Assembly: GCA_008636045.1 (NCBI GenBank)
Contig: SNRW01000006.1
Span: 1-50,188, forward strand
DNA: 50,188 nucleotides
Origin: Streblomastix strix
Taxonomy: Eukaryota
Direction: 5' to 3'
Below, in pieces: positions 2,600 through 34,000 of the stretch (positions within the stretch are counted from its first letter, which is position 1; the number at the start of each line of letters is the position of its first letter). The position numbers were made by a program, and so were the translations under genes. The notes below the pieces were generated by a model that saw only the letters and a program-made list of their open reading frames with translations, was not told the origin of the DNA and made no database searches.

Positions 2600-4760
2600 T
2601 CCTCTTTTAAAATCCATTTATTGGAGTACAGGACCACTAAAATTGATCAGACCAAATGAGTGAAAATGCGACGAAACTCGAGAGAAACAAGTTCTTGGGA
2701 AAGGACAAAGAGAATACAGTAGAACTCGGTTAATTCGTACGCCGTTTAATTCGTACCCCCGCTTAATTCGTATGTTTTTTTTGATATATAATTAGAGAAA
2801 AAGATATTTTTTGGAAAAATATTTCAAAATTAAATAGGAAATACGAATTAAATTTAATTCAGATTCACATTTTCAGAAAAAGTCACCCTGCGAATTAACC
2901 GAATTCTACTGTATAGGACTTAAACTCAATTGGAAAGAGATTACTGGTAATTATTGGTCATAATGATCAGGAAGTTGAGGTAAAAACTCAGCGATTCACA
3001 GTTCTCGCAGAATATGCATGTGGCTGCAGAGACAGTATTATTTTTTGGTGATGTTCGTAAAACAACACGTTAGATACTTACTATTCAAGATGCCTCCAGA
3101 ATTATAAATGGCATAACGCAGCAGAGACTAGTAGTTTCATTAGTCATAAATCAATTTAAAGATATTTAAAACAAAATACTTTGCTATAAGAGGTATTAGG
3201 CGAGCAATCAAAATAGGCCAAAAAATCTGCAAAAAACAACAAATATCCTAGCTTAAACAAATAAATTACTGAATCTAAACTAATATTCAACTTATAAGTA
3301 TTTTTTTCGCCTAAAATAGTCCTTTTTGCGTAACAATAACTTTTCTTCCCTTAGCAACTAACTCTTTATAACTTGTATCATTAACTATTCTCTCAGATTT
3401 AATAGTAACCTCAGAGCCTTCTGCCTTTGTTAAATTCAATCAACTAGTAAAATGCATCTACATAATCGCAGTCTAATCTTTATCGATAATAACTAACTGC
3501 TCAATGAATCGAAGCAGATCTGGAGAAGACTCTGCTGAGGTTCTGTGAGAAAAAAAATGATGAAAAGGACAAACTGTTCGAATGAAGCTCATTTTTCATT
3601 TCAAATAGAGAAGAAAATCCCGTAGACTACAATATTCTCTTGGATTAAGAAGATTTTAGTCTCTCATTACATTTTTTATAATTTATTAAATAATTGCAAG
3701 ATGAAATAAAACCAGTATTGTAATATTAACTCAAGATATTAAGGTTTATAATCTAACATTTTTAATAAAACGTGCTGATTGTAGATCTAGAAAAATCTTG
3801 GATTATAGATGGATGAATATAATAAACAGACTCAGATCTTTAAAAGTAAGTAGTTAGAAAGAACTTAAACATCTGTTACTACAAAGTGACTTTACAGCTA
3901 CTGTAAATCTGAAAGATGCATTCCATCATATCAGCGTTTCTCATACTTTCCACCCTATTTTCGGGTTTTCTTTCCAAAATTGAAGCTATGATTACGATTG
4001 CCTCACATACTGTTGGCTTAATAGCTCCTTTATTCACAAAAAATCTTTTCAATCGTGATTAAAGATATTATCAGAAGATTAGAAGTTATAATCTACGATA
4101 ATTAAAGAGAAAATCAGTATAGATAATAATTGACTTCCATTAGTTCAAAAAAAAGTTGGAAATAATATTATATCTTATGAGCCTAAGTTGGAGATTTTCA
4201 CCAACTAAATATAGCCTCACGCATAGCTGAAAATTCAAATGTCTCGGATATGAATGGAATATATATACAATTAAAATAACAATTTTTCATCAATAGAAAA
4301 AATATTGAGGACTAAATAGAAATTATGGATCGAAATATCAAAATAGAAGCATAGAATAAAAGTTTGAGATTTTGCATCATTAATATGGGAGTTAAACTTC
4401 CTCAAGCTCCAATTTATTCAAAAGTCCCAATAAATTAATACCTTAAAAACATTTAAGAGTAAAACAATAACTAAGTAGTTCTGATGCTGCCAAGTTTAAC
4501 TAAATAGGGTAATTTTCCTTAAACCATATATTTTTTGAATATTCATTCCAATTCTTCAATAAATAAATGCCAACAATCTCCTCTTTTAAACGGAAAACTC
4601 CAAAGTGGAATAATGTCTGAAACATTGAAAACATACAAGAGTCTTTATTCAATTTGCAAAGATAAACTTCCAGTTACTAGGGACTCTGAGCATATGGTTA
4701 TTTACGAAACACATATTGAGAATTCATAATAGTAAGGCAAATGCTTAGAGTAAAATGGCT
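2600..4760 (+). pseudogene. Decayed retrotransposon, DIRS-like reverse transcriptase region
   Basis: Frameshifted RT motifs at about 3740-4030: KVYNLTFLIKRADCRSRKILDYRWMN and TVNLKDAFHHISVSHTFHPIFGFSFQ, matching the DIRS-type DLKDAFxHI motif. Many indels and TGA stops. Boundaries are approximate and no tyrosine recombinase was seen. Confidence 0.7.
2717..2911. mobile_element. 195-bp pogo/Tc1-mariner-type MITE
   Basis: 21-bp TIRs CAGTAGAACTCGGTTAATTCG (2717-2737) and CGAATTAACCGAATTCTACTG (2891-2911), one mismatch, flanked by TA on both sides. Three TTAATTCGTA copies lie at the left end. Confidence 0.93.
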
Positions 4761-5603
4761 CTTCGCAGTAACATGCTGAACGTATAGCAGCAGAACAGCG
4801 TTAACGTGCCCAATAACGATATAGAATGCAACGCTAAAACTTCCGTGTTTATGCAAATGATTTTCAATTACTCTTGATGCTTCATTTTAAAAATACTGCT
4901 ATAAATAATATGCAAGATCTACTTTAAATCATTGATACAATTGAACTTAATAACATAATGTAAGCTATTAAATTTTGATTAAATGTTTATTTTTGCATTC
5001 TTGAGTTTGTTAGTATTGTGATTAAAGTATAATTAATGAGTAATTAAAGTTTAGATTAACGTTGACTTATGAGTGATTAATGTAAGGATCGATGTTGATT
5101 GATGAGTGAATAATATATGATTAATGTGTGTTTAATGTTAGTATGCAAGAGATGTATCGAAAAGAGGTAAATTATCCATAAATATCGAGTGGTTCGAGTT
5201 AGAAAATGTATTACATTTCGAATATGCTTGAGCTATAGAGATTCACATTAAATTCTCTAAGTGCATCGAGTGCATTGAGTGTATTGAGTAAGTAAACGGC
5301 TATCTAATTTGGAGGACAGTTTTCCATTTGGACAGTTAATTCTACATTGGATATTCCCGTCTATTATCTCACAGCGCTAGCACATATATCAAATTTACAA
5401 TGTTATTGTCTGCTACTGTTCTGTCAACTTAATTGAGAATTCTCTGACCCAATGCACTAGTTTATTTTGATTCATTTCTCCACAACTCCTTAATTCGACA
5501 CTTTCATAATGAAAACATTTATCTCTGCATGGAACTCAACACCAATGATTACATGAACGTTTCATTTGTCATTGAATCATTCATTTACAAAAATAAATAT
5601 CAA

Positions 5604-5915
5604 TCATATATTTTCATATTAAACATTTAATTTGACATCAACTTTTTTCAAATAATATGTTGATTTAACAGCTGGTTTATCATTCTTAGTTAAAAGTTTT
5701 CTATCTAGCTTATTAGACATTAATATAGAAAATTCATTTATTTGCATATTTCTTCGTTAAAAATTATTTATTTATAAGAATATTCTTCCTTTTATGAATT
5801 CAGTTTCAAAGTTTTTTATAATTCAATCTAGAAATTGATTACTATACTAAAGGTACTATGATCTTTAATCACGAGAATCAAATGGATTATCAAATTATAT
5901 CTTGCGTTGTTTCAT
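5604..5915 (-). pseudogene. Small element-borne ORF (~103 codons) of unknown function, one internal TGA
   Basis: Reads MKQRKIQFDNPFDSRD...VDVKLNVQYENI* in code 6 and is preceded by the conserved upstream motif at 5950-6060. Confidence 0.4.
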
Positions 5916-6084
5916 TTATATTAAACTAAATATAAAACATTTAATTGTAAAACTGTCCAGCTATTTTACTGGTCGACATCTTTTGGGTTAATGTCTAAAC
6001 CCAAAGCGCTCAATGCACTCGATGCATTAGTTCATTTCAATCAATTTCTCCACGATTCTAGTGCAAAAATAAATTCTATCAATA

Positions 6085-6500
6085 TCAAGCATATTCTATT
6101 CATTTTTTGCTTATTCAATAAATTATTCTTTTTTAGCGTCTTCTTTAATATCCGCATCTAACATACTTTCATAAATTGGTATCATTTCTACTTTCATTTT
6201 ATAGATAAATTTACGTACTCTGCCAACCTATTTCTATGTTCCTTCACATATATTTTTGATCATTAACTAATAATTCTTTAACTTCATATCTTATCGTTTC
6301 CAACCTTCAATAATATTGCATGTAACTCAATCTCTAAATGATTTGAAATGACTGATAATTGCATCATCAACAGGTGATATTGACGCTCTTATTATATCTT
6401 TCCTCATTTATGTCATTGGTATATCTTTTGAATTAAATTATGAAATATCTCTAGTCAAAAAGAATGTGAATAAGTAATTATAAAATCATCATCGAAGCTA
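6085..6500 (-). pseudogene. C-terminal part of the interrupted primase-helicase gene
   Basis: Reads SFDDDF/YNYLFTFFLTRDISQFNSKDIPMTQMRKDIIRASISPVD..., continuing directly from ...YFIILCNS at 13732. It contains frameshifts and an internal TGA, and the last frame ends at TGA 6085-6087. Confidence 0.8.
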
Positions 6501-6714
6501 AATAATATATGTTGACTGTACCACAGACTACTAATTCTGCCATGATATTTGAAACAATATTCTCTGCGCCAAATAACAATAGCAATTAAGCGAAATTCAT
6601 CAATGTAATATATAAAAGATATGGACAATTTTAAACAAATTTCAACTATATTGACGATATAAATGCAACCTATAACAAAATTAACACAATTCATCTTCAA
6701 AAATAGCAAAATTA

Positions 6715-9700
6715 TCACTCAATTATATAATGATCAACACTAATCCCATACACAAATGGAGTATAATATCCGTAAATTAAAACAACTATCTTATTATGAG
6801 TTCCTGTGAGCACTGATTTTTTCATATTAATCGTAGACATTACCTCCATTTTCATCTATAAATTATTAATTGTCACATTGATGTTACACCCATCATTTAA
6901 ACATTTAATATGGTCATTGGTTGTTATATCTGCCTTCACTTCACTTACACCTTTCATCCTATTCACTAATGAAACTATGTTATCATTTTATTCATTTTCT
7001 TTGTATAGATTATAACATTTAGGTGCAATACAGACAAAATTTTCACCCTATGATTCAATTGTAATACCCATTAATTTCTTCTCTTCAGCAACAGTACAAT
7101 CATTCCATGGAAGCCACTCTTTATACTGTTAGTCAAAGAACCCCTAATCTTTAATCACATACTTCAATCCATATTTATAGCATTCAATTTTTGATCCCGC
7201 AATAGCTAAATACATTTAATCAGTATCCATATTACAGAAGTGAACCCTATCCATATCAATACATTTATAGAGGAAGTTATATACAAAATTGAGATACCAG
7301 AATTTGTTATTGTCTAGTTTAAATACAGATTCTTGAAGAGGCATATTATACTTAAATTATCTAGGTGATTCATTAACCATATACTATGCTTCTTCAATAA
7401 CTTCATCATCAGAATTACATATATGGGTATTTCCAATCATAAACAACCTACAACTTTTTTTAATTTTAAAAAATTTAAATTAAATTTATAAACAAAAATT
7501 GGAGTTGCAAACATTTAGATTTGCATCCTCTGAAAAATTAAGCTAAAAATATATTCATGTTTTTTCAACAGCAGAAAACTAATCATATTATTAAATTTTT
7601 ATTACAAACATTTTTTTAAATTTTTTCAGGTAGATTGAAAGACAAAAACTACATTTTCAGCGGTACACATTCGTGAAAACCGTTTTTTATTAATTTTTCG
7701 ATTTTTCCGCCCATTTCATGCTTAATTACTATTTTTTTTTTAAAATTATTTATTTAAAATTATTTTTTAAAAATTGGACCAATAAAAATTATAATTACAG
7801 CTATGCTTATTTGCGAAATTTCAAATTAAATTTTTTTGTAAAAAAAATATACGTGTTCGATTTTTGAGCTAAATTAAATTGAGTAATTATAAAATAAATA
7901 CATTAATGTTTATTATATTAAATTACAATAATTGATGAATTTGAAATGGTGATTTGAATAAAAAAACGAAAAAACAAAAATTTTCTGTTTTTATGAACGC
8001 ATGCCGCTAGAAACGTCGTAATTGTCCATCAATGTATCTGAAAAAATTTTAAAATATATTTTTAATAAAAAATAAATAATAATATTACTTCTATAATGAC
8101 AAAAAAATAAAATCACAATTTTTGCTCGTTTTTATAGCGGAGGCAAATCGAAAAATTTGCAACTCCAGCTATTGTTCAAAAAATTATTTAAATATTTTTA
8201 AATAAAAAAAATAAAAAGTTATCCTACTGAATGGACACTTCCATATCATCACTAAATTTCCTTGTTGCTTTATGACACTAATTTATTTATTTGATTGAAG
8301 CATATCGAGCATTATTTAATGATATTTTATCAAATTTAAGATTATTTTATCCTTCACCTCCGAAAGCACTATTAAGTATTTACCTGTAATATAGAGATTT
8401 TGTGTCATTAGGTTGATTAATTGCTTCTTTTCTCCTACTCATCTTTGTACATGTAAATGATTCAAATCCTAAATGTTTGTCAAATAGAGCAATTGAATCA
8501 ATTTCATCAATAATAAAGTTACAATAGTCAATTAATAACCATAAAATACAGCTAGTGAAGCTCATGAATTGATTGTGTGTTGTTTACAATGATGTTAGTT
8601 TTGTAGTAGGTTTATCAACAGTTAATCCCTATGACAGCATCATACTGTACATAAATTCTCCTATCTATTCAAATGAATTATTATGCGTTAATTTTCTCCA
8701 TATTGGTGCTAAATTTATGTGTGAGTTAATATGTTTTCTCATCAATGTGACTTATAATTTTGACACATAATAGTTATCCTTTATCTGTATATCTATCAGC
8801 ACTCATAATTATATCTCTTGTTTTCTATTTTGAATTATTAGAGGTACATTTGAAATAATTAGTCAATCCACCTGCTTGATTTATTCGATGATTTGTATAA
8901 GGGTTATTTTTGTTGAATATACCACTAAATACACTTGGATAGAGAGAGTTTAAATCTAAATCAAGTACACGAGTAATTGTATGTAGGGTGTCATAAGATG
9001 TTATTGTTTTAGTTACATGATTATATCTAAATTTATTAATGTGTCTAATTCCTTTTAAATTAAATTAATGATACACATTAGATAAGCCACCTTATATACG
9101 TTTTTTTAGCATATTATATACAGATTCATTATTAATTGTCATATGTAGATGTTCATGGATAGAATATTTCATTAATTGATTTTTAATTTATTAATATCAT
9201 TATCTTTATCAGCCTTAACGGTACTACATATTTAACAAGCTAGTTAACAGTTCTATTTTGTGTGACCAATTGAATTATTAATTCCGTCTAATATATGTTT
9301 GATTTCTTTAACGAATTTGTAACGACATAGATGAGATGTTTCACTAGTTACTTTATCTCTAATACAATCAATATCATCTTCTGTAACATAATTAGTTGTA
9401 TCTTTCTTAGCATACTCATCTTGATTGATATATCTTTTGACTTTGTTATTCCACCAATATTAAGTAATTTCGAATTATTCAAACCTATTAACTATATTAT
9501 AACTTGCATTGATACCGCCCTTATCATAACAGTACTTGTATTTAATTTAACTAACAATTTGAGCTAGTGATATACAACCTAACATATCAACTCTCTCTTT
9601 CTACGTAATTTGAATTAGATGATTGATAGAGTTGATCATAAAAGTAATATCCTTGATATTGTAATGCTTTAGATAATCCTATCTATATGTGAAATTGATT

Positions 9701-12685
9701 GAATCATTAATAAACTATTAATAATCTTCATCAATAATATTCATATTATTAAGTTTGTCATAGAAATCTTCCTTAACAAACGGTGTTGCTTATCCATGTA
9801 CTAATTAATAGTTATCATTTTTGAATGATATATGTGGAAATAAACTTTTTGTTAATTTTATACCTTTAGTACCAAATTTCTCAACGAATTACTTTAATGT
9901 GTTGTTTGATGGGAGAAATGATAATATTTCAATAAACCTCAAGTCAAAATCGTAATCGTAATGTGATACAATTGTCTATTTAGATTATGTTGTTGATTCC
10001 ATATATTAAATTCTAGTCTTATTTTTAATTAAGTATATGAGTAATAGATTCATATCAAACTTCTTAGAATTGTATCCTATAACTGATACTTGTGGCTTAT
10101 ATGGTTCATAACGTTTATCTTCAATTGCAACATCAGGTATATTTGATTGATTGACTTCATTAACTTTAATAGCAACTTCAAACAATTAACTTATCCATTA
10201 TTCAATAAAATCAGAGCCATTTCGTAAATCAAAATATAATGTAGTAATAATACCATTAACTGTTGCTGCTGATGCTACAGACAGAGGCTCTAATTAAGCT
10301 ATCACATTGTCTACATCAATTATGTTCTCTACTGTTTCAAAAATCAGATGTAATGTAATTAAGTGCAGGAGTTAATAATTCTTATTAACCTATTGCAATT
10401 AATTTCTATTGTAGTATATTCTTTGATATATCTGAATAATACGGTTTTGGTAAATGATCTAATTTAACTTATTTAGTTGTTTATGGACCCTATTAATACT
10501 TCAAGTGTCTAGCTAACTCTCTCTTATAATTCTGATTCGTTGTATTAAATATCATCTAACAGTTGAGGGGACACAGCTTTCCATTAATTACTTTATCAAT
10601 ATCGCTAATGTACATTGCATGGATTTCATCAACAAATGATAATGGAACTAATAGAACATTAACAGTTAGAAAGTCCTTAGCACTTATGCCGCCAGCTTTG
10701 CCGGTATCAATAATGTGCTCTTCGAATTTACTGAATTATTCAGGTTGATTTTATCTTGTTTTCAACATCTTATCATCGCATATGTATGCTATTGTATTCA
10801 TCTTGAATATTTATTGAAATCTTTCAAGATCTCTAACATAATTGAACTCTTTATATGATTCGAGTAGCTATTTATTAGCTTTATTTAATCTACTACTTGG
10901 ATTGATATCATTGAATTAGAGAAATAATTTAATAGTATCACTAACTCTAGTTCTTGTTTAATCAATCTCATGGTGCAATGCAAATGAAACAACTGAAAAC
11001 CAACATATATTATATTCACAATCAATGCCCATAGTGGTACCTTCATTATTGAAGCGCAAACATATTTTATCCATTTTAGTCCCTAATGGCAGTCTATAAA
11101 CAACAATCAAAAACGAAAATAGGGCTTCCTTTAATGTTGCTGAATCTTCATGAGTAATGTCTTAATAATCCGATAGTAAATCAATAGCTTTCTATTTGAA
11201 ATAGTCATTAGTCTATTTATCACTAACTACAATAATAGGTAAAGTCTTATAACTATTATCAGCATTTGATCTGGTGTGTGAATAATGACATTCATCTAAT
11301 ATTTGTTAATGCATATAAACTTATTACTTTTTCTAGTATATAGATTTAAAACTAATATATTCTTTATAGGGTTTAGCTTTCTCTAATTCATATACTTAGT
11401 CGATTTTATTTTTCAATTGCTATAAGTCAAAGAAATGATTATAATAGTATTACATATATGATTCTTTATTTTCGATACCTTTTGACAATAATAATGATGC
11501 AGGCAACCCATCTATACTAACTTCATTCTTTTCTTAATATCTCTTGCGTGCCTGAGCTAGTATTGCATAATAATCTGATAAGTTCAATAGTGTGAAGATA
11601 ACGAATGCCTTCTAATTAAGTTCTCTATTTTTATTTAATTATTCTGTCTTTGTAATACTTTGTTCACTAAAATGATCCTTATGAAATCCGAAATATTCAT
11701 CATTAAGTTTTTTCACTCTTTAATTAAATTCTTTAGCACCTAATTTTACTTCTAGGTATTTGAGAAGTTTAAATGGTTTTTCACCCTATCGTTAATATCT
11801 TGAATTGATGAGTATCTGTTATAACTGTTCATAGAGATTATGTCTCTTCCATTTGCTCTTAATCACATTAGCTGCATCAATTGATTATTGGAATTGTTAT
11901 TATGCTAAGTCTTTTCGATAATTCTTTTTGACTAATACGGCTGCTTTATTCTTTTTCTCCAATTTTTCCTACAATTCTTGAATCTCTTATTGATGAAACT
12001 ATTCTTACTGATCTAATTCTTATTAATGTTTCAATTATTATTCAGCTAATAACTGTTAATAATTTGAATTAATTTACTTTGACTCTTGAATTTATTCACC
12101 CAAATCAAATTCTTCTCATAATAAATCAATTATTGTTTGTAATGTCTCTTATTGCTAATATATCTTAATAGTGATTTATTGTTAAGCTTATAGTAACTAT
12201 TATATACGCTATCTTCGATCACATTCTTCAAATTTTTATTTGTAATCAGTTCTGTACTTATCAGGATTGAATATACCATCATCTGAATTGTCAGACCAGT
12301 TCAATTCGTTTATGATAGCATTTATGCCGCCATCAGAGTTTGCATCATCAATATTTGTAGTTAATTATGGTTATTGTTAACCATTATTCAACTATTAATA
12401 CTATTTATCAACTACTTCCGTTATTGATAATAATTTTGGTTATTGTTATTGATCAATTTATTCTAATTATTAATACTGTTATTTGTTTCTTTCAGCTACA
12501 ATTTGATTTACAAATACAACAATTTCAGTTGTAATTGAAATTTAACCTGGATAATGTAAACGAAGTAGTTCATTAGTTTACATGTTTCATAAATCAACTG
12601 CTGTGTGATTAGGTAAATATGCAACTTATAACTAATTTAGTAAATTTTAAATCTATTATTTACTCGTTATGTATTTTTCTGCCAT
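6715..12685 (-). pseudogene. Protein-primed family B DNA polymerase (Polinton/Maverick-like) with long N-terminal extension, decayed
   Basis: Exonuclease motifs xFETVE (~10280) and IGYNSKKFDMN (~10070). Polymerase motif A VLDLDLNSLYPS (~8935-8970), motif B YRQILNSAFGG (~8360-8390), motif C HFCNMDTD (~7220-7245) and late CIAPKCY. ATG at 12685, TGA at 6715-6717. It carries frameshifts, internal TGAs and an insertion at 7452-8220. Confidence 0.9.
7452..8220. mobile_element. 769-bp non-coding long-TIR (foldback/Mutator-like) element inserted in the PolB gene
   Basis: Imperfect inverted arms of about 240 bp, e.g. GGAGTTGCAAA at 7501 versus TTTGCAACTCC at 8156. Ends are AACTTTTT...AAAAAGTT, flanked by AACCTAC and ATCCTAC (possible 7-bp TSD). 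It lies between PolB motifs B and C. Confidence 0.85.
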
Positions 12686-13731
12686 TTGTATGTGGAAAAA
12701 AAAGTCAATTTATTACTGTATCATTTTTCTGCATTTTTTATTTTTAATAAATGACATAAGAATTGAAGTTGTTATTAATGCAAATCCCATCAATCAAATC
12801 TCCTAAAGAAATGCGTTAATTTGTAAAAATGAATCATGAATTGTTATCCTATGTAACAGCATTCACTTTAAATAGATATATGACAATACCATAATTTACA
12901 TTCCTTCGAAGACATGGCTAGGTTCATGTATATTGTGACCGTAAACGTAGATCTAGATAACCTGAATTATTGCCTTAAAATATCAATTTATCTGAGCTCA
13001 AACCAATCGTTTCTGCTGGCTTTTCGAAGAAAATTGACGATATAAACAGAGCATAGCTTATCGACAAGCTTGATTTGCAAGCTATAAATTAGTTAAATGA
13101 TTAATCTGATAGTATTAACGAAAATTTTGATTGATTATATATTATTTTTATCTATAATATTTTTAATTTTTGATACATAAAGTATATACGTATTTGAAAT
13201 TATTTGAAAAACTTTTGTAATTTATTTCTTAATATTTTAACACTCAATCCTACAGCACTTTGCTAATTAATATATATATTTATGATGTATGTAGTGATAT
13301 TGACTATACATAGAAGTAATTGATATAATTAGTTTATTAGTCAGTTAAAAATTAATAGTTAAAATTGTTAAATTTTTTCATAAATTTTGAAAATAAGACA
13401 TTTAATTCTTAAATAATTTTGAATATTTTTGAATATTTTTGATTAATTTTTAAATAATAATTCATATCATTATTTGAAGATGAATGTATCTTAGATATAT
13501 GATTAGCATTTATGCTGCCAACAGAGTTGATAGAATTATCCACATCATATACGCATCACATTGATGAATAGTACTCATTTGTTCCATAGGAATTTGCTTA
13601 GAATTGTCCATATCATTTACACATTACACTGATGAATTTCGCTGAGTTGTTATTGTAATTTGGCTTGGAGATTATGGTTACGAATAGCACGGCAGAATTA
13701 ATGCACAATGGTACTGTCCATATTTATTATT

Positions 13732-16292
13732 AAACTATTGCACAAGATAATGAAATACGTTAAATCTCCTCGATAAGTCGAATTACGTTTGCATACACCG
13801 TAACGTCTATCGTTATTCTCAATCTTCGATGGATAGATATTATTTGTAACAATTATTATATTAACTACATTTTCAACTTCATGCTTAGGAATATATTTCT
13901 CATTAGTCACAAATGAACTTTCAGTAATTATTGATTTTAATGCATCCATATTTGACATTCTTGATTAACCAAAATTTTTCATTTCATTCGCAATTGCTAG
14001 CAACTTATTCTCGAAAGTAGTATTGAACTTATCTACAAAGTCATCGATATTATTGATATTTTTAGACGAATATCCTGCTAATAATTAATATAGAACATTA
14101 GTAAAACATTCTTACCATTATCATATATTACTTATAATGCAATAGTTGTTTCAATCTTCTTTCCAACATTCTGCACAATAAAGGCAAATCAATTCAATTA
14201 ATATTCATAATCCAATTCATCATTTGCCGAGATTGTATCTTTCACTAACGCTAGGAACTATTCAACTTTTGTTTAATTCTCTTTATCTAATTGAATATAT
14301 TTAAATCCTTAGAATACTTTTAACATTTCTAAATTATCAATAATGAATTTTATATCTAATTTCTCGAATAATGAATTATACTATTCTAATGCATCAATTA
14401 CAGTTATTTTCTTTTCCCATCTTATCAAAGTTTAATTGAGCATAATTATTCATAAATCACTGATTTAATTTTATAAATTATCATATTTTTTGCAATGAGA
14501 TAATTGTATTTTTTAATGATGTAGCATCATCCATTTTTGCAAGGTATAATTCTTAATATTTTCAATAAATCTTATGCAAGGAACTTTAATTTATTCTAAT
14601 ATTATCCATTTAATTCTTTGTTTGATACATCCGTTAATGTGAAAGGATCTATCAGTTCAAGCCTATTCTTCTCAATTGATTTCACAACTGCTCCAATTAT
14701 CTATTATTATTTTTGATTTATATGTCTTAATGATCAAATGTTTAAGTGTGGATTCATAGAAATCATTATTATGTAATTTAATGTTTTTCGTTGATATTCA
14801 TGCATTAGCTTTATTGTAATAACGTCCTTTTCTTTCGCTCCAATGTTCACCTGCTTTAGCTGCTAAATTATTATTTGAATAAAAAGTTGGATAAGCTAAT
14901 TCTTTGTAATTTGCATCTCCTGCTTGTTCTAAACAATTAAGTCCCAAGAAAAAAGATAGTAAGCTAATTTCACGCTCTAATGTGTTTGCATCACTGTGAA
15001 TCGTTAATCATTTTAACCTTTAAATACGTACATCGGCAATTTCAATAGACATTACATCAAGAGTGCAATCTTTATTAGTTATACTAAATTCCTTATCTTT
15101 AACTGTTAATTCAAGGTTTCATTTACAAAGAATATCATATAATGAAGTTGGATGTTTTGAAATAAACCAATCAATAAGTTTCCAATAATGAAGTGTCTCT
15201 TTCTTTTGAACTTTTTTATCCATGATTCTCACGTTGCTATTAGGTAGAACAACTCTATTTTCATCTAATTTACCATTTTTATGTGTGTACATTTATGCAA
15301 ATATATCAATCTCTAAGTGATCTCCATATGTTACTACTTTTTCATTTTTGTTTGAAGAAAATATGTATCCATTTCTGTTACAATATGCATGTATTCCACC
15401 AATTGCAGTTTATACTAATCCAACATTTGATGGAAGCATATTATTGATTAAATTTTAATGAATTTTCTTTTTCTCTTCTTCGTTTAATTTACCAGCATGA
15501 TCATTATCAAAATCAATAATACATAAATCTTTATATCCGCATAAACATAAATCAATTGCATGTCCAATTAAAAGGTTATTTTTCAGTTTATCATCAGCAA
15601 ATTTCCAATATTCATATAAATCAACAACTTCTTCTTCAATTCTTTCTTTAATTTTTTTAAGAATTATTCTTACTCGCGAGCTGCATCAAATGTATCACTA
15701 ATTATCTTGCCGAATTATTCATATTTACTCATTAGATTTTCACGATCTTCTTACATCAATTTCAAACAAGCTATTTTAACTGCAATTCTTTTCCTATCTT
15801 CTTCCGTAGCTTGTTTTTTGATGATTTCATTAGCTTTTCTATCAAATTCTTCTTTCATTTTCTACTTTGATTCTGATTCATATTCTTATCTCTATAATTT
15901 TTCTAATCTATTTGCTTCTTATTATTTCGCAGCTCTTGATTCCGAATCTCCTTCAGAATTACATAGTTCATCAATAATTTTCTCAGGTCTATCTTTATTT
16001 GTTCAATTATAAGTTCATTAGTGATTTCATTAATAGGTGATGTGTCTACAACTGCATTATCGATTTCACTTATCCATTCATTAGATTTTTCATTATCTTT
16101 TTCATTATCTTTGTTAATCATTTATTCCATCAATGCTTTAGCTTTCTCATTCATTTTTGATTTAAGATTATGTGATCTCTTTGCTCCTTTCGCAATTGTT
16201 AAATGTTTATCGTTTATTGACTAGTTCAAGATTGATTCAAAGAATTTACTATCTTTAATTTCATTTTCCAGTTATATCATTTTGGTTTACAT
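13732..16292 (-). pseudogene. Prim-Pol (AEP) primase fused to SF3/D5-like helicase, N-terminal part, decayed
   Basis: Coiled-coil N-terminus, then AEP motifs LCIIDFDND, VQTAIGGIHAY, EIDIF and RVVLPNS. The helicase has a degenerate Walker A (..NGKN.. at ~14110), Walker B LAIANEM, motif C NIIIVTNN and DRRY. Several frameshifts. Confidence 0.82.
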
Positions 16293-18588
16293 TTAAAATG
16301 AAAGGTTAATTGATAAAAATAAATTTATTTATATTAATCAATTCATTAATCACTTCACTAAATTCAAAAATTGCCATCTGTCCTACTATCCGACATCTTT
16401 TAGGCTAACCGCATGACTCAATGCACCCAACCCACCCAAAGTACTGGATTATTTGAATCAATTTCTTCATAACTGGTGATTATAGTTTCAAATCTACTCG
16501 AACCACTTTAGACACATAAAGAATTATCCACATTTGCATATATCTCTGGCACATTAAAATTGACGTGAACGTCAATCATTTCATTATATAAGTTATCAAT
16601 CATGTCATCAGTTTTATCGAAAAACACACTTAGACCATCGACCAGCTATTCAAAGACACTTATTCAGTTTCCTTAGTAAAACTTAATTTGCCACCTCCAA
16701 TTACCACCTAGACCTCTTTATGGGAGTTTATGTGTAAGCGTGACAGTATAACAGCGTGACAAATAATTGATCTATAAATTTTTCATCATTTACCCACTCC
16801 TATTATATATGCTTATTAGTGTCTCAATCAGCAGATGATAGGTTAGATTGCAAAAATAAGTTTATTATCAACTTCCATCATTAATCACTTTGTTAATTTC
16901 AAGCGCTAATCACGATTGTAACAAACATATGTTTGTTCTATGAGTAATTTGTTAAAAATTGCACTGTCTAAATGATGAAAATGACATCGTTTTGAACTAA
17001 GACCAATCACAAGATTGATTATTATAATTTTTGTTATTTATTGTTGATCCCATTGCTCAATCATATTGTTTAAAAATTCATCTTCAACAACTGTTTGCAC
17101 TTATCTATTCATTTATTTATATCATTAATCTCCACATCCTAACTAATTATTTTGTCCATTCAAATTATCTCTTAAATCTAATATCAAACAATAACATACA
17201 ACATTCAAGAATCCCTACAATTCATGCCACAAATTCCATAACTGCTGAACATCAATATTGGCGTATTTGTAGCTTAGGCAAATGAGGTTATTTTCTATGT
17301 TAGGGCAGAGCTCTTTTTAACTAGCTTTTTATAAGAATTATTAAAAATGCCATTATGACTTAAAAAATAATTGAATAATTAAATATAATTATTAATAAAT
17401 ACTTTTTTAAAAACATTTTTAAAATCATTTAGTGTTCATATACCAATTTTTACGTTAGCGCTAACAGTTTGTAGAAGGTGAAAGAATCAATTCGCACATC
17501 GCAATTAAAAAGAGATAAGTTAAATTAATGTAATTATACAAATAAATAGTCCAATTAACCGGAGTCTAATAACAAAGATTCGAATGATATGATAAGAAAA
17601 TGTAATTCATTAATAAACCTCAAAAATATTTTTCACAAATAAGAACAAAATATGAAACAATCGATTCATATCAGCAACATTGCAAAAAAATTTAAAAATT
17701 TAAAATTCATTTTATATTAAATTAAACATTATTTTTAAATTCTTCAATTTTTCCAAAATATTTAATTTTTCATAATTTCTATTTACATTAATTTCGAATT
17801 ATTCGGAGCAATTAGTACACATTTTTGAGCTACACGAGTATAAGCTATTATCAAAATTTCCGAAGTGGATAAATGAATGAAAAAACAGCTAAAAATATAT
17901 TAATAGATACAATTATTTTTTTTATTGTTAGTAATTAATTAATTCTTTCCCTTACAATTTTTCGTAACGTTTAGTTTTTAGATGATTTGAAACGTGTATG
18001 GTTAAATGAATATAATCCTGGTAATAAGAAAACACTCATAAATTAAATGTGTCCTCCAGAGAAACCTGATAAAATATATTTAATGACTGATAGATCAAAA
18101 TTAATAGTCGATAATATATATAAATTATTTCAAAAATATTAACTTTCTCAAAATATCCATAAAATGTTCAATCTAAATTATTATTCACTATTTTTCTATC
18201 AAAAAATGCTCTAATAAGTAAAATTTAATAACAATTGAGCAAATCTAGTGTCGATTTATAAATTAAAAATAATTTTGTTTGAAAATTTTTAAAATTGAAA
18301 AAAAAATAAGATATCTATACTATTTGATGTAATTAATATGAAAAACAATAATTATTAATTATAAAATAAATAAATTTATAATTATTAATCATTTAAAGAT
18401 TATCAATTTTCATAAATATTTAAAATTTGGAACAATATTTTCACGCAGCTCACTATATTATTTGTAATTTTGCTAAGGATTTATCATTGTATTTATATTT
18501 TTTAACTATATTTTATTATTTAACAAACATTTCTTTTATCCATCTGCCTATTTTATTTTTCTTTCTTTCTTCATAACTTATCTCTAAA

Positions 18589-21174: not shown

Positions 21175-21728
21175 ATAAGAAGAAATGAAAATAGACACAA
21201 TCTATATTCTAATAAATGAATAAAATAACTCTGATAATCTCATTTAAATATTTTTTTGAATAGGTAATTTATTATCATACAGTATCTATTTCTCAACAAT
21301 TTTGAGCTTAAAGTATATCGGAAATTTCACTTTTTAGTAAGCTATATATCATTGAACATTAATAATAAATAATTTTAGTATTTTTTTATCTAAGGAATCA
21401 GCGTATGGGAATCGCAATTGAGTTCGTTTCCACCCTTACGCACTTCCTATCCTCATTGTTTTCTTGCTTATATTATATATATTAACATAACCAATTGATT
21501 TTCAACCGAATTTATCAAAAATACACGAAGAAGACGGAATGAAACACAAATTTCGCATTTATTCTCATAATCGGCCTCACACATATCCAATTACTAATTC
21601 ATATGATTTAATATTAATTAATGAAGAAATATGATAATTAATCATCCTATACAAAATTGAACGAACTATAAACTGCACGTTGAATCTACAATTAACATTT
21701 TTATTTTTGTTTTTGCTTGTAGAATTCA

Positions 21729-22587
21729 ATGGCTTATCCAGGCAGGATATTTCTCAACATTATTAGAGCGAAAGATATTGTGTCATCAGATCTGATAGGG
21801 AAGGTGGATCCTTTCATTAAGATCATCTTCGGGAAAGTGGAAAAGAAGACCAAGGTAAAATAATTTCAATTTTATTATTTGTCTTTAAATTTTTATTCTT
21901 TTAGAAAGTGAAGAATAATGCTAACCCAGAATTTAATGAAGAATTTCTATTCGATTACGCTCCACAGGCAAACATGCATGTTATAAGTCTTGAAGTCTGG
22001 GATTATGACATGATTGGAAGCAATGAGAAGCTTGGATTTGTGCAGATTCCAGTATGTTTACAACATTTTAGTGTATTATAAACATTTTTTTTAGTTTGAG
22101 GAATTTATGAACAATAAACACACAAAGAAATACCCATTTTCTACTAAGAAAGGAAAATTCCAGGGAGAAGTAGAAGTATAGCTCTACTATGAAGCACCAA
22201 CTGCCCCTGCTGGAGCTACTGGAATTGCAGGATCAGCATAAACAACTGCATTCTCAGCATAACCAGGATCTGCGTATCCACCACCTCCAGGACCTTCTAG
22301 TGGATACATACCTCCTCCAGCACCTGGATATGCACCTCCTCCAGCATATGGAGCAGCTCCTGGATACGCACCACCTGCACCTGGATACGCACCACCTGCC
22401 CCAGGATATGCACCTCCACCTGGATATGCACCACCTGCACCTGGATATGGAGCACCTCCTCCTGGGTATATATGAATAATTTTATTTAAATTTTAACTCA
22501 AAATTTTTTAATTTATTTGATTTCTTTAATTAATTTTATATATTTATTATTTAAATACTAAGATATTATCCACCACCGTAATATTGA
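21729..22587 (+). CDS. C2-domain protein with Pro/Gly/Tyr/Ala-rich tail, paralog 1
   Basis: MAYPGRIFLNIIRAKDIVSSDLIGKVDPFIKI..NPEFNEEF..LEVWDYDMIGSNEKLG, with acidic Ca-ligand positions present and PAPGYA repeats. Introns at 21855-21904, 22052-22094 and 22466-22562. Ends GYYPPPQY-TGA. Confidence 0.92.
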
Positions 22588-23280
22588 TCTTCATATGATG
22601 ATATCAACTAGGTAAAAGGGTTGTTGTTGAAGAGCCAAACTCATTTTCAATCAGTTTTTTCTTCTTATTTTCTTCTTATTTTCATCAAACTATTTAATCA
22701 AATTGAAACTAAAAAAGTAAAAAGGTATTAATTAATTGCACAAGTATTGATTAATTGAAACCGTATTAAAATAAATATTGTTTTACAACCCTCTACCTTG
22801 CATTTTCCTGTATTTAACAAAAAGAAAATTTTCATCTATAGTTTTTAGTCATTCTCTAGATATTTTACACCGCGAAGTGCTCAGAATGATACAACATAAT
22901 ATAATAATGTCTAATTACAAACCAGAAAATTCTTAAGACTAAATTACAGTGAATACTAATATTTATTTTAAAAGACGATTTTCTCATTGAGCAACAAATA
23001 ATTATTCATAGATATAAGATTAATATTTTAAATAATTATATTTATGTTATAAAATTTCCAATCTTCTTTTAAACTCACCAAACTCAGTGTAAGGGAATGA
23101 TTAGTTTTATTTTAAAAAAAATAAATAAAATACCTGAATTTATTCATTAAAATGAATGTTTATTAATAAATTATTTTATATCTTATTGTTATCTCTATAT
23201 TTTCCAAATTGAACGAACTGTAAAATGCACGCTGAATCTACAATTAACATTTTTATTTTTATTTCTGTTTGTAGAATTCA

Positions 23281-24197
23281 ATGGCTTATCCAGGCAGGAT
23301 ATTCCTCAACGTCATAAGAGCCACTAATGTTATATCGGCAGATCTGATAGGGAAGGTGGATCCTTTCATTAAGATCATCTTCGGGAAGGTGGAAAAGAAG
23401 ACCAAGGTAAAATAATTTCAATTTTATTATTTGTCTTTAAATTTTTATTCTTTTAGACAGTAAAAAACAACCAAAATCCCATATTCAACGAACGTTTGCC
23501 ACAATATTATGATATTTCCTGTAAATATTAAAATTATTATTTTTCAGAGTTTGTTTTCGACTACGCTCCACAATCAAAAATGCATGTTATAATGCTAGAA
23601 GTCTGGGACTATGATATGATTGGAAGCAATGAGAAGCTTGGATTTGTGCAGATTCCAGTTTGCTTTCATTATTTATTTATATATTGTTAATATACTTCTT
23701 CAGTTTGAGGAATTTCTGAACAACAAGCACACAAAGAAATACCCATTATCAACAATCAAAGGCAAATTTGCAGGAGAGATTGAAGTAGATGTTTTCTATG
23801 AAGCACCAACAGCCCCTGCTGGAGCAGGATAAGCGTTAAGTGCTCCAGGATATGCCCCTCAACCTTCTGCTTCATACAGCGCTATGCCTGATGCTCCTCC
23901 TTAAGGATATGCACCTCCTCCAGCTTATGGAGCACCCCCAGGTTATGGTGCCCCATAAGGATATGCGCCTCCTCCAGCATATGGAGCACCACCTGCTTAT
24001 GGAGCTGCACCTGGATATGCACCACCTGCACCTGGATATGCACCACCTGCACCTGGATATGGAGCACCTCCTCCTGGGTATATATGAATATTTTTTTAAA
24101 TTTTGTCTCAAAATTTTTTAATTTATTTGGTTTCTTTAATTAATTTTATTTATTTATTATTTAAATACTAAGATATTATCCACCACCGTAATATTGA
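23281..24197 (+). CDS. C2-domain protein with Pro/Gly/Tyr/Ala-rich tail, paralog 2 (tandem duplicate)
   Basis: Same architecture as paralog 1. Introns at 23407-23456, 23494-23547 (extra), 23658-23703 and 24078-24172. Confidence 0.92.
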
Positions 24198-24771
24198 TCT
24201 TCATATGATGATATCAACTAGGTAAAAGGGTTGTTGTTGAAGAGCCAAATTCATATTCAATCACTACATCATAATCTTGTCAAATTTTTCTTTATTTAGT
24301 CTAGCTTTAATTAAAAAAAATGAACTTATATATATGAGTTATTAATATGTTATAAATATCAATAAAATATTGCTCTTCATCATACAAAACATTGTAAAAT
24401 TTCTTTTATAGTTTTTAGTTATTCCTAAGTATTTGTACTGAAAATTGAACATTTTAATGCAATTCCATAAAAAATCTTAAAAAATAAAATCTTTAAAACA
24501 TTCGTTACTTTTTTACTATGAACTTCAAATAATTATTTTTTAAATGTAATTTTCTCATTCAATAACTAATAATTTTAAAGTTAAATATTATATTACTAAA
24601 AATTCAAGTAACACCTCTTCGTTATTATTTCAATTATATCATTTAACTGACAAATTAATGTATAAATTGATGTTCAAATAAATTTATTTTTTTGGAAAAA
24701 AATGAATGAAATATCGAAAGATTATAGTTATTTTTATTTTTTATTCAGATTAATCCAAGTGAAATCTCAAG

Positions 24772-31000: not shown

Positions 31001-34000
31001 AATAAGAGTAATTTAGAACGAAGAGAAGAAGAAAGAAGAAGACCAAGTTAAAAGGAAAGATGAAATAATTAAGAAGGATAAAAAAGGAGATAAAAAAGAT
31101 AAATAATACATTGAATAATCAGATCAAGGAAATTAAAATCACGAATTGTTATCTTCTGCATCATCCTCATCATTATAGTCATATTAACAATTATTATAAT
31201 AATACAACTCTAATGATATACTGAATTTTATTATTTTATAGTAATAAGGAAGAAGTGTGGATTAATTAATATATCATCAATGCTTATAAATAATATGCAA
31301 TTATTATTCTTAAATATATGTTTTAAATGAAGATAATTTAAAAGAAGAATTGTTAAGAATAAAAATGTAAATATAAAATGGGAATTCACCTACATCTTTT
31401 TCTTTAATAGCAATTAATATCTTTGATGGATATGAAAGATAAAATAATGATGCTCTAAATAAGTAATAATAATAATACATGTAATATGAAATATAATAAA
31501 ATTAGGAACAATAATAATCCCCATCTAAATAACTTTCATTTTCTCCATAAAGATCTAATCATTCAATATAATAATAATAATAAATGCAACCATAACAACA
31601 AATATAAATATAACCACTTGCTTCTCTTGAAATTGATATTAAATAATAATTGTAAGTCTAGAATTAAAACTCGAATAAATAATTAGAATTATTAAATAAA
31701 TTAAAAGTATAAAAAGACAAAAGAATTGGGGAAATGATTGATTAAATTTAAATTATTGACGTTGTTATAAGAAGTTTGGATAGATTGCATAGAAGTATTA
31801 GTATATGGGTTGCATATTTGTATTAGAACTATATTTATGATGAATAAATAGGCGAAAGGGAGAAATTGAAGAAGACTGAATAAAATTAATCATCTAAATA
31901 ATTTTCTAATATTTCTCATTATCTTGAATCACACCTTCCTTTTCTTCATTCATTATCTAAATAGCATTCTTCTATTTAATAATATTATAATAACACAGTA
32001 TAATAAATAAATAAATAAATTTATAATAAGATAAATTATTCATAATAACATTTATAATCTAATTTAAATTATCATCAATTTGGTTGTTTTGAATATTAAA
32101 CTCATTTTAACATAATTAATGTTCTTATTCAATATATTGTAAGTTATTTTTGCTAAGCAAAAGGATATTAATATAATGTTTATAATAATAGATCAAAATT
32201 TATTGATAATAATTTGAACTGTACTAAAAATGAGATTTAATAACAAATAATTAGTAAGAGATAATTTGGAATATTTTATAGAAAATAAATAAAAATTAAT
32301 GAAATTATGAATGAAAATGAAATAATTTCTGGAAATAAAGATGAAGAATAGGAATTATTAAATATATAAGATATTAATAATAAATAGAATAATTATTAGA
32401 TTATGCGAACAACTTCCCCTTTGAAATAAAACTCTTCACCATCATCAATATCATATAGTTAATAATAATAATAATAATAATCTTAATAATTATAATCAAA
32501 TATATTAAATTCTAGTCATTCAGTTTCTTTTTCTAAAATTCCATTATTATTTTCTCATTCATTTCAATTTCCTTCATAATCTTCTTCCTTGTATTATTCA
32601 TTCCCTTCTCCTAATATGTTTATTTAAGATAATTACTTGTTAGTTAANNNNNNNNNNNNNNNNNNNNNNNNNNNNNNNNNNNNNNNNNNNNNNNNNNNNN
32701 NNNNNNNNNNNNNNNNNNNNNNNNNNNNNNNNNNNNNNNNNNNNNNNCAGTTTCTTTTTCTAAAATTCCATTATTATTTTCTCATTCATTTCAATTTCCT
32801 TCATAATCTTCTTCCTTGTATTATTCATTCCCTTCTCCTAATATGTTTATTTAAGATAATTACTTGTTAGTTAATATTTGGAACGTGTGTGTAAGAGGCT
32901 CTTTTACAAAATAAGAATAGATTTAAGGGTTAGAAACATTTGAAGCTATTGTTGATTAATTTTCTTATAATTAATCGTTTATTTTACATTAATAATAAAA
33001 AACTTAAGAAATGGAATTAAAGGAGAATAAAAATTAATCAACTTAGCCTTCTCACATGCATAAACATAAACATGAATAATAATAATATTCACAGCAATAA
33101 TCATAAACCATTAAAAAATAAATGTATAATGGTTCATTTAATGAAGATATTCTATAATAATTTAGAGAAATTTGCTAATCATTTATGAAATTTCCACCTT
33201 TCATTTAATTTACTGATTATTTTATAAAATCAACAAGTTCTTTATTATCAGAAACATTATAAAATGATATTAATTATTAAGAATTTCCTCAATCATCATT
33301 TTAATTTTCATCATAATAATAATAGTTTGTCGCATCAATTCCACATAATCTAGAATTTATCTTAAGAATATTCTCAATAATACATATTTAATAAATTTAA
33401 GAGCATAATTATTCTTTATTTATATCTTTATTTACGATAATTAACAAAAACAGAATAATATAAAATGAAAATGAAAATGGAATAGATTGTTTTAATAATG
33501 AAAGTGATGATGGAGATGAATATGAATATGAAAAAGAAGAAAGTGAAAATAGAAGAATAAATAAACAAAGAAGTGATATATTAAACAGACAATGGAAGTG
33601 GAATATTAATGGAGATGAAATAGTGAATGAAGAAGAGAATTTGAAATAATTATAATAAAGTAAATTAATTAATAATCTTCAAACGTTTGATGAAATAAAA
33701 AAGAAAGATAATCATTTAATAAATGGAACATTAATTAATTAAGATGAACAAAAATAATTATTTAATTAATAATAAGAAATATCAAATATTTTAATTGGTT
33801 ATAATAATATTTGGGAAGCTTGCATAAATTGGTTTATTGATGTTGAAGGAATAAAATAATAAATATTTAAATTTACTGAAAATTAGATTAAATAAATAAA
33901 AACATTATATAAATAATATTAAAATGAAATAAATGAAAAAAAGAATATGGAAAAAGAGAGCAAAAAAGATAAAAAAGAAGAAAACAAGAAAGAATAATTA

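Follow-up and report, generated by a model that had tools for sequence, protein, structure and literature searches.

The stretch of DNA that we analyzed (the window) comprises 50,188 nucleotides of contig SNRW01000006.1 of Streblomastix strix and reads in genetic code 6, in which it holds an open frame of 4324 codons. An element at 6501–13731 has AATAAT at both ends and is bounded by terminal inverted repeats (TIRs) whose cores align ungapped with 112 of 141 positions identical (blastn E 1e-28). With one 60-bp gap, which a subterminal duplication of the right arm makes necessary, the alignment reaches ~6710 and ~13465, giving arms of ~210 bp. Immediately outside lie two copies of a target site duplication (TSD) of 6 bp, the only length that fit when 3 to 10 were tried at the flanks; the chance of at least five matches in six at a fixed register is ~0.013. 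An alternative terminus reading AG...CT (6496–13736) was rejected, as its flanks agree at only two of six positions. The sequence-only reading had described TIRs of 143 bp, a 6-bp TSD matching at five of six positions, and a unit of 7.2 kb, or ~6.5 kb without its own insertion. The TSD was confirmed, as was the size (6,407 bp after subtraction of the nested element and its TSD); the TIRs are present, with a core of 141 bp that can be extended as above. Its interval of 6495–13737 counts both TSD copies. The right junction was bridged at zero differences by contigs of X1 (13597–13905) and X2 (13603–13813), which derive from one sample, possibly the source, and provide read support for the right junction only. 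The matching runs listed were termite-gut metagenome contigs from that one sample, and none was an RNA run.

Table 1. Features at the insertion locus (positions in the window)
Feature	Position	Strand	Description
Degenerate inverted repeat	5096–5289	+	Possible left end of an older helicase unit
Target helicase gene, 3' part	6093–6494	-	From homologue alignment
Left TSD copy	6495–6500	.	AAGCTA; 5/6 match to 13732–13737
Left TIR	6501–6714	+	Terminus AATAAT; core 6501–6641; inner edge ~6710, adjoins polymerase stop
Decayed pPolB gene	6715–12583	-	~5.05 kb without insert; N-terminal region, vOTU-like Cys/His, exonuclease, HNH, polymerase
Nested TIR element	7423–8244	.	822 bp; ends ATGG...CCAT; AT duplication
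Spacer upstream of polymerase	12584–13457	.	~875 bp; common to diverged copies
Right TIR	13458–13731	-	Terminus AATAAT; core 13591–13731; 60-bp subterminal duplication
Right TSD copy	13732–13737	.	AAACTA; 5/6 match to left copy; contigs bridge junction
Target helicase gene, 5' part	13738–16280	-	Prim-pol-like domain and SF3 helicase (DUF5906, E 2e-14), decayed
Degenerate inverted repeat	16416–16602	-	Possible right end of an older helicase unit

The one recognizable gene of the element is that of a family B DNA polymerase of the protein-primed type (pPolB), which at full length occupies about 80% of the unit. It is read on the minus strand from 12583, where the start coincides with that of the homologue P0085, to a stop at 6715 adjoining the left TIR. 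In a frameshift-aware alignment the window polymerase was 76–79% identical to its relatives, including P0006. The window copy is dead: it carries three frameshifts (near 10339, 9179, and 8734), one stop (TGA at 12116–12118), and, within the polymerase domain, the nested TIR element, whose arms of ~285 bp are identical at 203 of 287 positions and in which no gene was recognized. A module of ~27 bp was also seen three times in the element, near 10679, 12317, and 13505 (an exact 16-nt pattern occurs in all three); two of the modules are nine-codon in-frame inserts missing from relatives, and a comparable insert of nine residues stands elsewhere in P0098, another copy.

The 28 long homologues found for the polymerase fragment were all Streblomastix strix proteins. 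A model of one homologue, P0009, covering the late vOTU region to the end, reached a pLDDT of 90.5 with a 132-row alignment, whereas a shallower alignment gave a fold of pLDDT 27 only. The best PDB match of this model was phi29 polymerase (E 3.6e-14), the first RNA-primed family B enzyme appearing at E 4e-7, and its top viral-model matches were bidnavirus-like, MELD, and adintovirus PolBs. By these results on relatives 76–79% identical to it, the cargo is a protein-primed family B polymerase. Pfam alone recognized neither the window fragments nor P0006 as a polymerase, and PF03175 was matched in 7 of 17 family members. The family polymerase has ExoI–III motifs and no helicase; residues 815–929 of P0006 match HNH/endonuclease VII (E 7e-11), the top PDB sequence match for this insert being PacI, at the weak level of E 0.012, and the HNH motif is kept in distant homologues. 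All 12 motifs tested were kept in P0006, P0008, and P0101, three of the six long copies. A putative vOTU Cys was conserved in 9/9 and a His in 10/10 of the rows covering those columns, which we take to belong to vOTU from their position and the vOTU motif. The TP-vOTU region gave no Pfam or PDB match; by its position the N-terminal region would supply the terminal protein (TP), and in the reference architecture TP-vOTU stands at the pPolB N-terminus (10.1101/2024.03.18.585575). A FastTree analysis of 26 long homologues grouped eight close S. strix copies with support 100 and leaves the family unplaced, because named Polinton references are missing from the tree. Third codon positions accounted for 9 of 16 listed differences (p 0.05, in a subset selected by the tool), which only hints at selection on the polymerase gene.

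The element lies in a prim-pol-like/SF3 helicase gene, read from 16280 to 6093, that also matches phage primase families. All 47 homologues of the helicase fragment were Streblomastix strix proteins. A pattern spanning the insertion site matched 19 of them, all 19 uninterrupted there and mostly reading LCNSFD, and 9 of the 13 homologues shown aligned up to 13731–13737 and picked up again at 6485. Because the six duplicated bases sit in the N-S-F codons, a single TSD copy restores the helicase frame. The earlier claim of a clean split that rejoins on excision therefore applies to the TSD itself, where the halves rejoin in frame, but not to the gene as a whole, which has a separate frameshift a few codons downstream of the TSD and further lesions. 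The inverted repeats that flank this gene scored 74 relative to a maximum of 53 in 200 shuffles, and the gene has a direct-repeat copy at 5911–6052. As the target is broken, present in many copies, and enclosed by inverted repeats, we concluded that the element struck a mobile unit and not a host gene. The helicase between its inverted repeats (5096–16602) may be a second replicase-only unit, ~4.3 kb long once the insertion is subtracted, and no further gene was recognized in its flanks. Three distant pPolB relatives (P0143, P0147, and P0292) carry a C-terminal prim-pol-like domain resembling the N-terminus of the target helicase (E to 5e-13); P0147 is labeled Methanobrevibacter, nearly fills a 7,528-bp contig, and is possibly mis-binned protist DNA.

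Elsewhere in the window, an open frame of 727 codons (3–2183) encodes a DDE_1 transposase domain (E 7e-10) and, at its C-terminus, an OTU-like domain (E 1e-4). Fragments at 3500–4980, which gave no Pfam match, resemble by eye a decayed DIRS-type reverse transcriptase region. A proline-glycine-tyrosine-rich repeat gene at 21635–24263 has two tandem copies ~1.6 kb apart, and a 127-bp exact duplication flanking an N run at 32521–32874 is probably a scaffold-gap artefact.

Apart from the polymerase and the TIRs, the element contains only the 875 bp of the spacer, which leaves too little room for a capsid protein (about 560 aa; PMC10120064). Neither the scanned open frames nor the six spacer frames matched an integrase, capsid, ATPase, or protease, in agreement with the sequence-only reading, which had recognized none of these genes. 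Searched against Pfam and PHROG, the six spacer frames gave no meaningful match, and Rfam gave none across 8300–17500. An orphan frame in the spacer (12772–13134, + strand, ~120 codons), which may be a second small gene, is partly skipped in some copies. Among eight candidates returned for it only the window's own gene model was found, and the frame weakly matches one helicase model in its tail (E 4e-7).

We then asked whether the short layout is a trait of the family. On the 5' side of the polymerase, contigs that differ from the window at ~13–16% of letters (gaps excluded) cover 12453–12701, 12778–13432, and 13130–13462, with contig joints from 12565–12662 to 12733+ and from 13439 to 13543, and contig ends are nowhere piled up. 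They chain the polymerase 5' end through the spacer to the TIR uninterrupted; the chain consists of different short contigs that come from a single sample and were mapped at a similarity of 80%, with an unresolved interval between many of them. The N-terminus of P0089, on a 23.4-kb contig, is formed by 22 spacer residues (77% identical). At the other end, P0090 (14.9-kb contig) continues beyond the polymerase through the final 32 codons of the TIR, the match (32.7 bits relative to 24.6 for the best of 30 shuffles) stopping at the final base of the TIR with unrelated sequence beyond it. P0202 likewise runs into the TIR (26.9 bits), and P0216 (16.2-kb contig) shares the tail of P0090, its direct TIR match of 21.2 bits falling below the shuffle maximum. 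Such polymerase-to-TIR gene models make up 3 of the 288 proteins searched, and each spans a predicted intron of unknown length. Of 21 C-terminal tails, 19 end as the usual polymerase tail and are uninformative on the downstream sequence. In X2 and X3, a variant of the TIR terminates with ATTATT followed by a different flank, and P0085, a polymerase of 1653 aa, lies on a contig of 6,375 bp, circumstantially close to the 6,407-bp unit. The end-to-end reading of the TIRs, and the TSD, come from one copy, that of the window. Because partial copies elsewhere share the layout on each side, a one-off internal deletion, the case named beforehand as refuting the sequence-only reading, is an unlikely origin. 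The earlier description of a unit that holds only pPolB, has TIRs, and is flanked by a 6-bp TSD was supported, and the sequence-only interpretation as a whole partly so. That reading had overlooked the HNH domain of the polymerase, the nature of the target as a decayed repeat of high copy number, and the spacer frame that may be a second small gene.

A polymerase entry and a helicase entry lie on contigs of equal length (4,421 bp), which was not accepted as linkage. Near-equal, very high depths were observed for a contig with the TIR variant (13534–13706) and a helicase contig (13823–14428), at ~4,850 and 4,830 in X1 and 59.8 and 59.5 in X2, and the two may belong to a single amplified locus or molecule; summed contig depth, being unreliable, was not taken as copy number.

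Searches farther afield returned no relatives. IMG/VR gave none with P0006 (4 stretches) or with alignment A3 (382 stretches), nor did JGI metagenomes with A1 (374 stretches); two of the polymerase search patterns contain Gln, so that code-6 DNA would often escape them. The TIR pattern found three loci in JGI metagenomes, none similar to the window, and none in GTDB, where P0147 also had no relative (14 stretches). A plasmid collection had no match to the relative P0135. Among publications judged mostly from titles and listings, we found no pPolB-only TIR family.

The reading that we favor, and regard as on balance probable, is that the dead 6.4-kb TIR insertion belongs to a multi-copy family derived from Polintons, which carries only the polymerase, would copy itself, and probably borrows an integrase in trans. 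Self-replication is what the intact relatives suggest. An intact copy would make a polyprotein whose N-terminal part serves as terminal protein, is freed by the vOTU-like domain, and primes synthesis at the AATAAT ends. The (AAT)2 termini could serve jump-back initiation, the role proposed for the (AGT)2 ends of Mavericks (PMC8097293); their letters differ from the AG or AC starts of vertebrate Mavericks (PMC8097293). We propose that the linear DNA copy would then be inserted through a 6-bp staggered cut by a retroviral-type integrase supplied by other Polinton-like elements of the same genome, and that the inserted copy then decayed and was struck by the smaller TIR element. Such helpers are plausible because S. 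strix has 820 capsid-gene matches (PMC10120064, Tables S1, S4); no integrase gene was identified in any sequence analyzed.

Non-autonomous Polintons exist, and the family could be one: a shortened form that kept the polymerase and was amplified by the proteins of full-length Polintons sharing its TIR. The polymerase gene ends right against the left TIR, an arrangement that a deletion would produce, Mavericks are characterized by a 6-bp TSD and a terminal repeat, and S. strix has the 820 capsid-gene matches cited above. The evidence from other copies was gathered through polymerase matches, so that longer forms could escape notice. However, each link observed in other copies has the short layout, several copies retain long open frames and all motifs, and an extra gene beside the TIR appeared in no read or gene model. 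We consider a deletion derivative rather unlikely, while giving it appreciable weight.

Distinctly unlikely, in our judgment, is a split Polinton-like system of this oxymonad, in which pPolB-only and prim-pol/SF3-helicase-only TIR units, one nested in the other here, each replicate as minimal linear DNAs and are served by separate integrase/capsid elements or by the HNH domain of the polymerase. We see only a slight chance that the element inserts itself, with a PacI-like HNH introducing the staggered break and either the polymerase or repair by the host finishing the joint, so that no helper is needed. The HNH match in P0006, the weak resemblance to PacI, and the retention of the motif in distant homologues all speak for this mechanism; yet the pPolB2 of nematode and oomycete Polintons has such an insert and these elements have an integrase too (10.1101/2023.08.22.554363), we found no precedent for 6-bp TSDs made by an HNH enzyme, and HNH activity is a prediction here. 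Comparably improbable is a cut-and-paste DNA transposon with a 6-bp TSD that captured pPolB and was moved by a DDE transposase of the host genome. TIR transposons do lie nearby (the nested element and the DDE_1 frame), and the termini are unlike the reported Maverick starts, but the doubled trinucleotide terminus suits protein priming, the full-length gene fills most of the unit, and a transposase element sharing the TIR was not seen. That the locus is an assembly artefact or one-off rearrangement is very improbable: short-read assemblies of such elements can contain chimeras and spurious stops (PMC10120064, section 7), X1 contained only half of the sampled words, and the bridging leaves out the left junction, but the TSD and helicase halves in register on either side, the bridged right junction, and the layout shared by other contigs all argue against it.

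The closest comparison is with Polintons/Mavericks bearing an HNH-containing pPolB2 in nematodes and oomycetes, which share the PacI-like HNH insert, long TIRs, 6-bp TSD, and possibly the short terminal repeat; an oomycete cluster scored 0.91. Polinton TIRs measure 100–1500 bp and their TSDs 5–8 bp (10.1101/2023.08.22.554363), and those of the element fall within these ranges. Its (AAT)2 terminus has the form of the (AGT)2 or (AG)3 of Mavericks with different letters. In contrast, Polintons/Mavericks are 13–25 kb long, relative to 6.4 kb here, and the element has AAT termini and no integrase, capsid, ATPase, or protease that we could find. Since integrase and virion genes define Polintons (PMC5499653), the element falls outside that group; by analogy, it resembles the Polinton replication module in how it would work.

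Linear plasmids (pGKL-type cytoplasmic and mitochondrial) are also bounded by TIRs, based on pPolB, and capsid-less. They carry an RNA polymerase and other plasmid genes, whereas the element sits in nuclear DNA between TSD copies, follows code 6 as its host does, and has neither an RNA polymerase nor other plasmid genes. Linear plasmids are free linear DNAs with a 5' terminal protein; of the element we saw an integrated copy and short contigs. The cytoplasmic plasmids have the TP-vOTU-exo-palm order that is proposed for the element (10.1101/2024.03.18.585575). Transpovirons likewise derive from Polinton-like viruses and are small and bounded by TIRs, have no capsid, and rely on other elements (PMC5499653); unlike the element, which keeps exonuclease motifs and has no helicase, they are giant-virus parasites with a pPolB-SF1 helicase fusion that lacks the exonuclease. 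The stand-alone family B2 polymerases of Entamoeba histolytica, another gut protist, are Polinton-derived pPolBs with no integrase, protease, or ATPase nearby; they number four genes, for which the account cited reports neither TIRs nor a TSD (PMC3511435), whereas the element has TIRs and a TSD and exists in dozens of copies. The Metamonad Polinton-like viruses of S. strix share host group and genetic code, and pPolB and a primase-helicase are their usual replication genes (PMC10120064), but they are defined by capsid genes, which the element lacks; metamonad elements are unplaced in a 2026 framework (10.64898/2026.06.19.733378).

If the family were a plain deletion derivative, the locus would be a well-marked fossil of modest importance. 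If the split system were true, it would represent a one-gene class of self-synthesizing transposon or a segmented preplasmivirus. Loss of the capsid module is the proposed route from Polintons to linear plasmids and transpovirons (10.1101/2024.03.18.585575). If the favored polymerase-only family is real, a multi-copy nuclear unit of TIRs and one TP-vOTU-exo-HNH-polymerase gene that still generates 6-bp TSDs would represent an even more reduced step along this route. Surveys seeded with capsid genes overlook such families, and this one would provide a minimal substrate for testing Polinton replication and integration.
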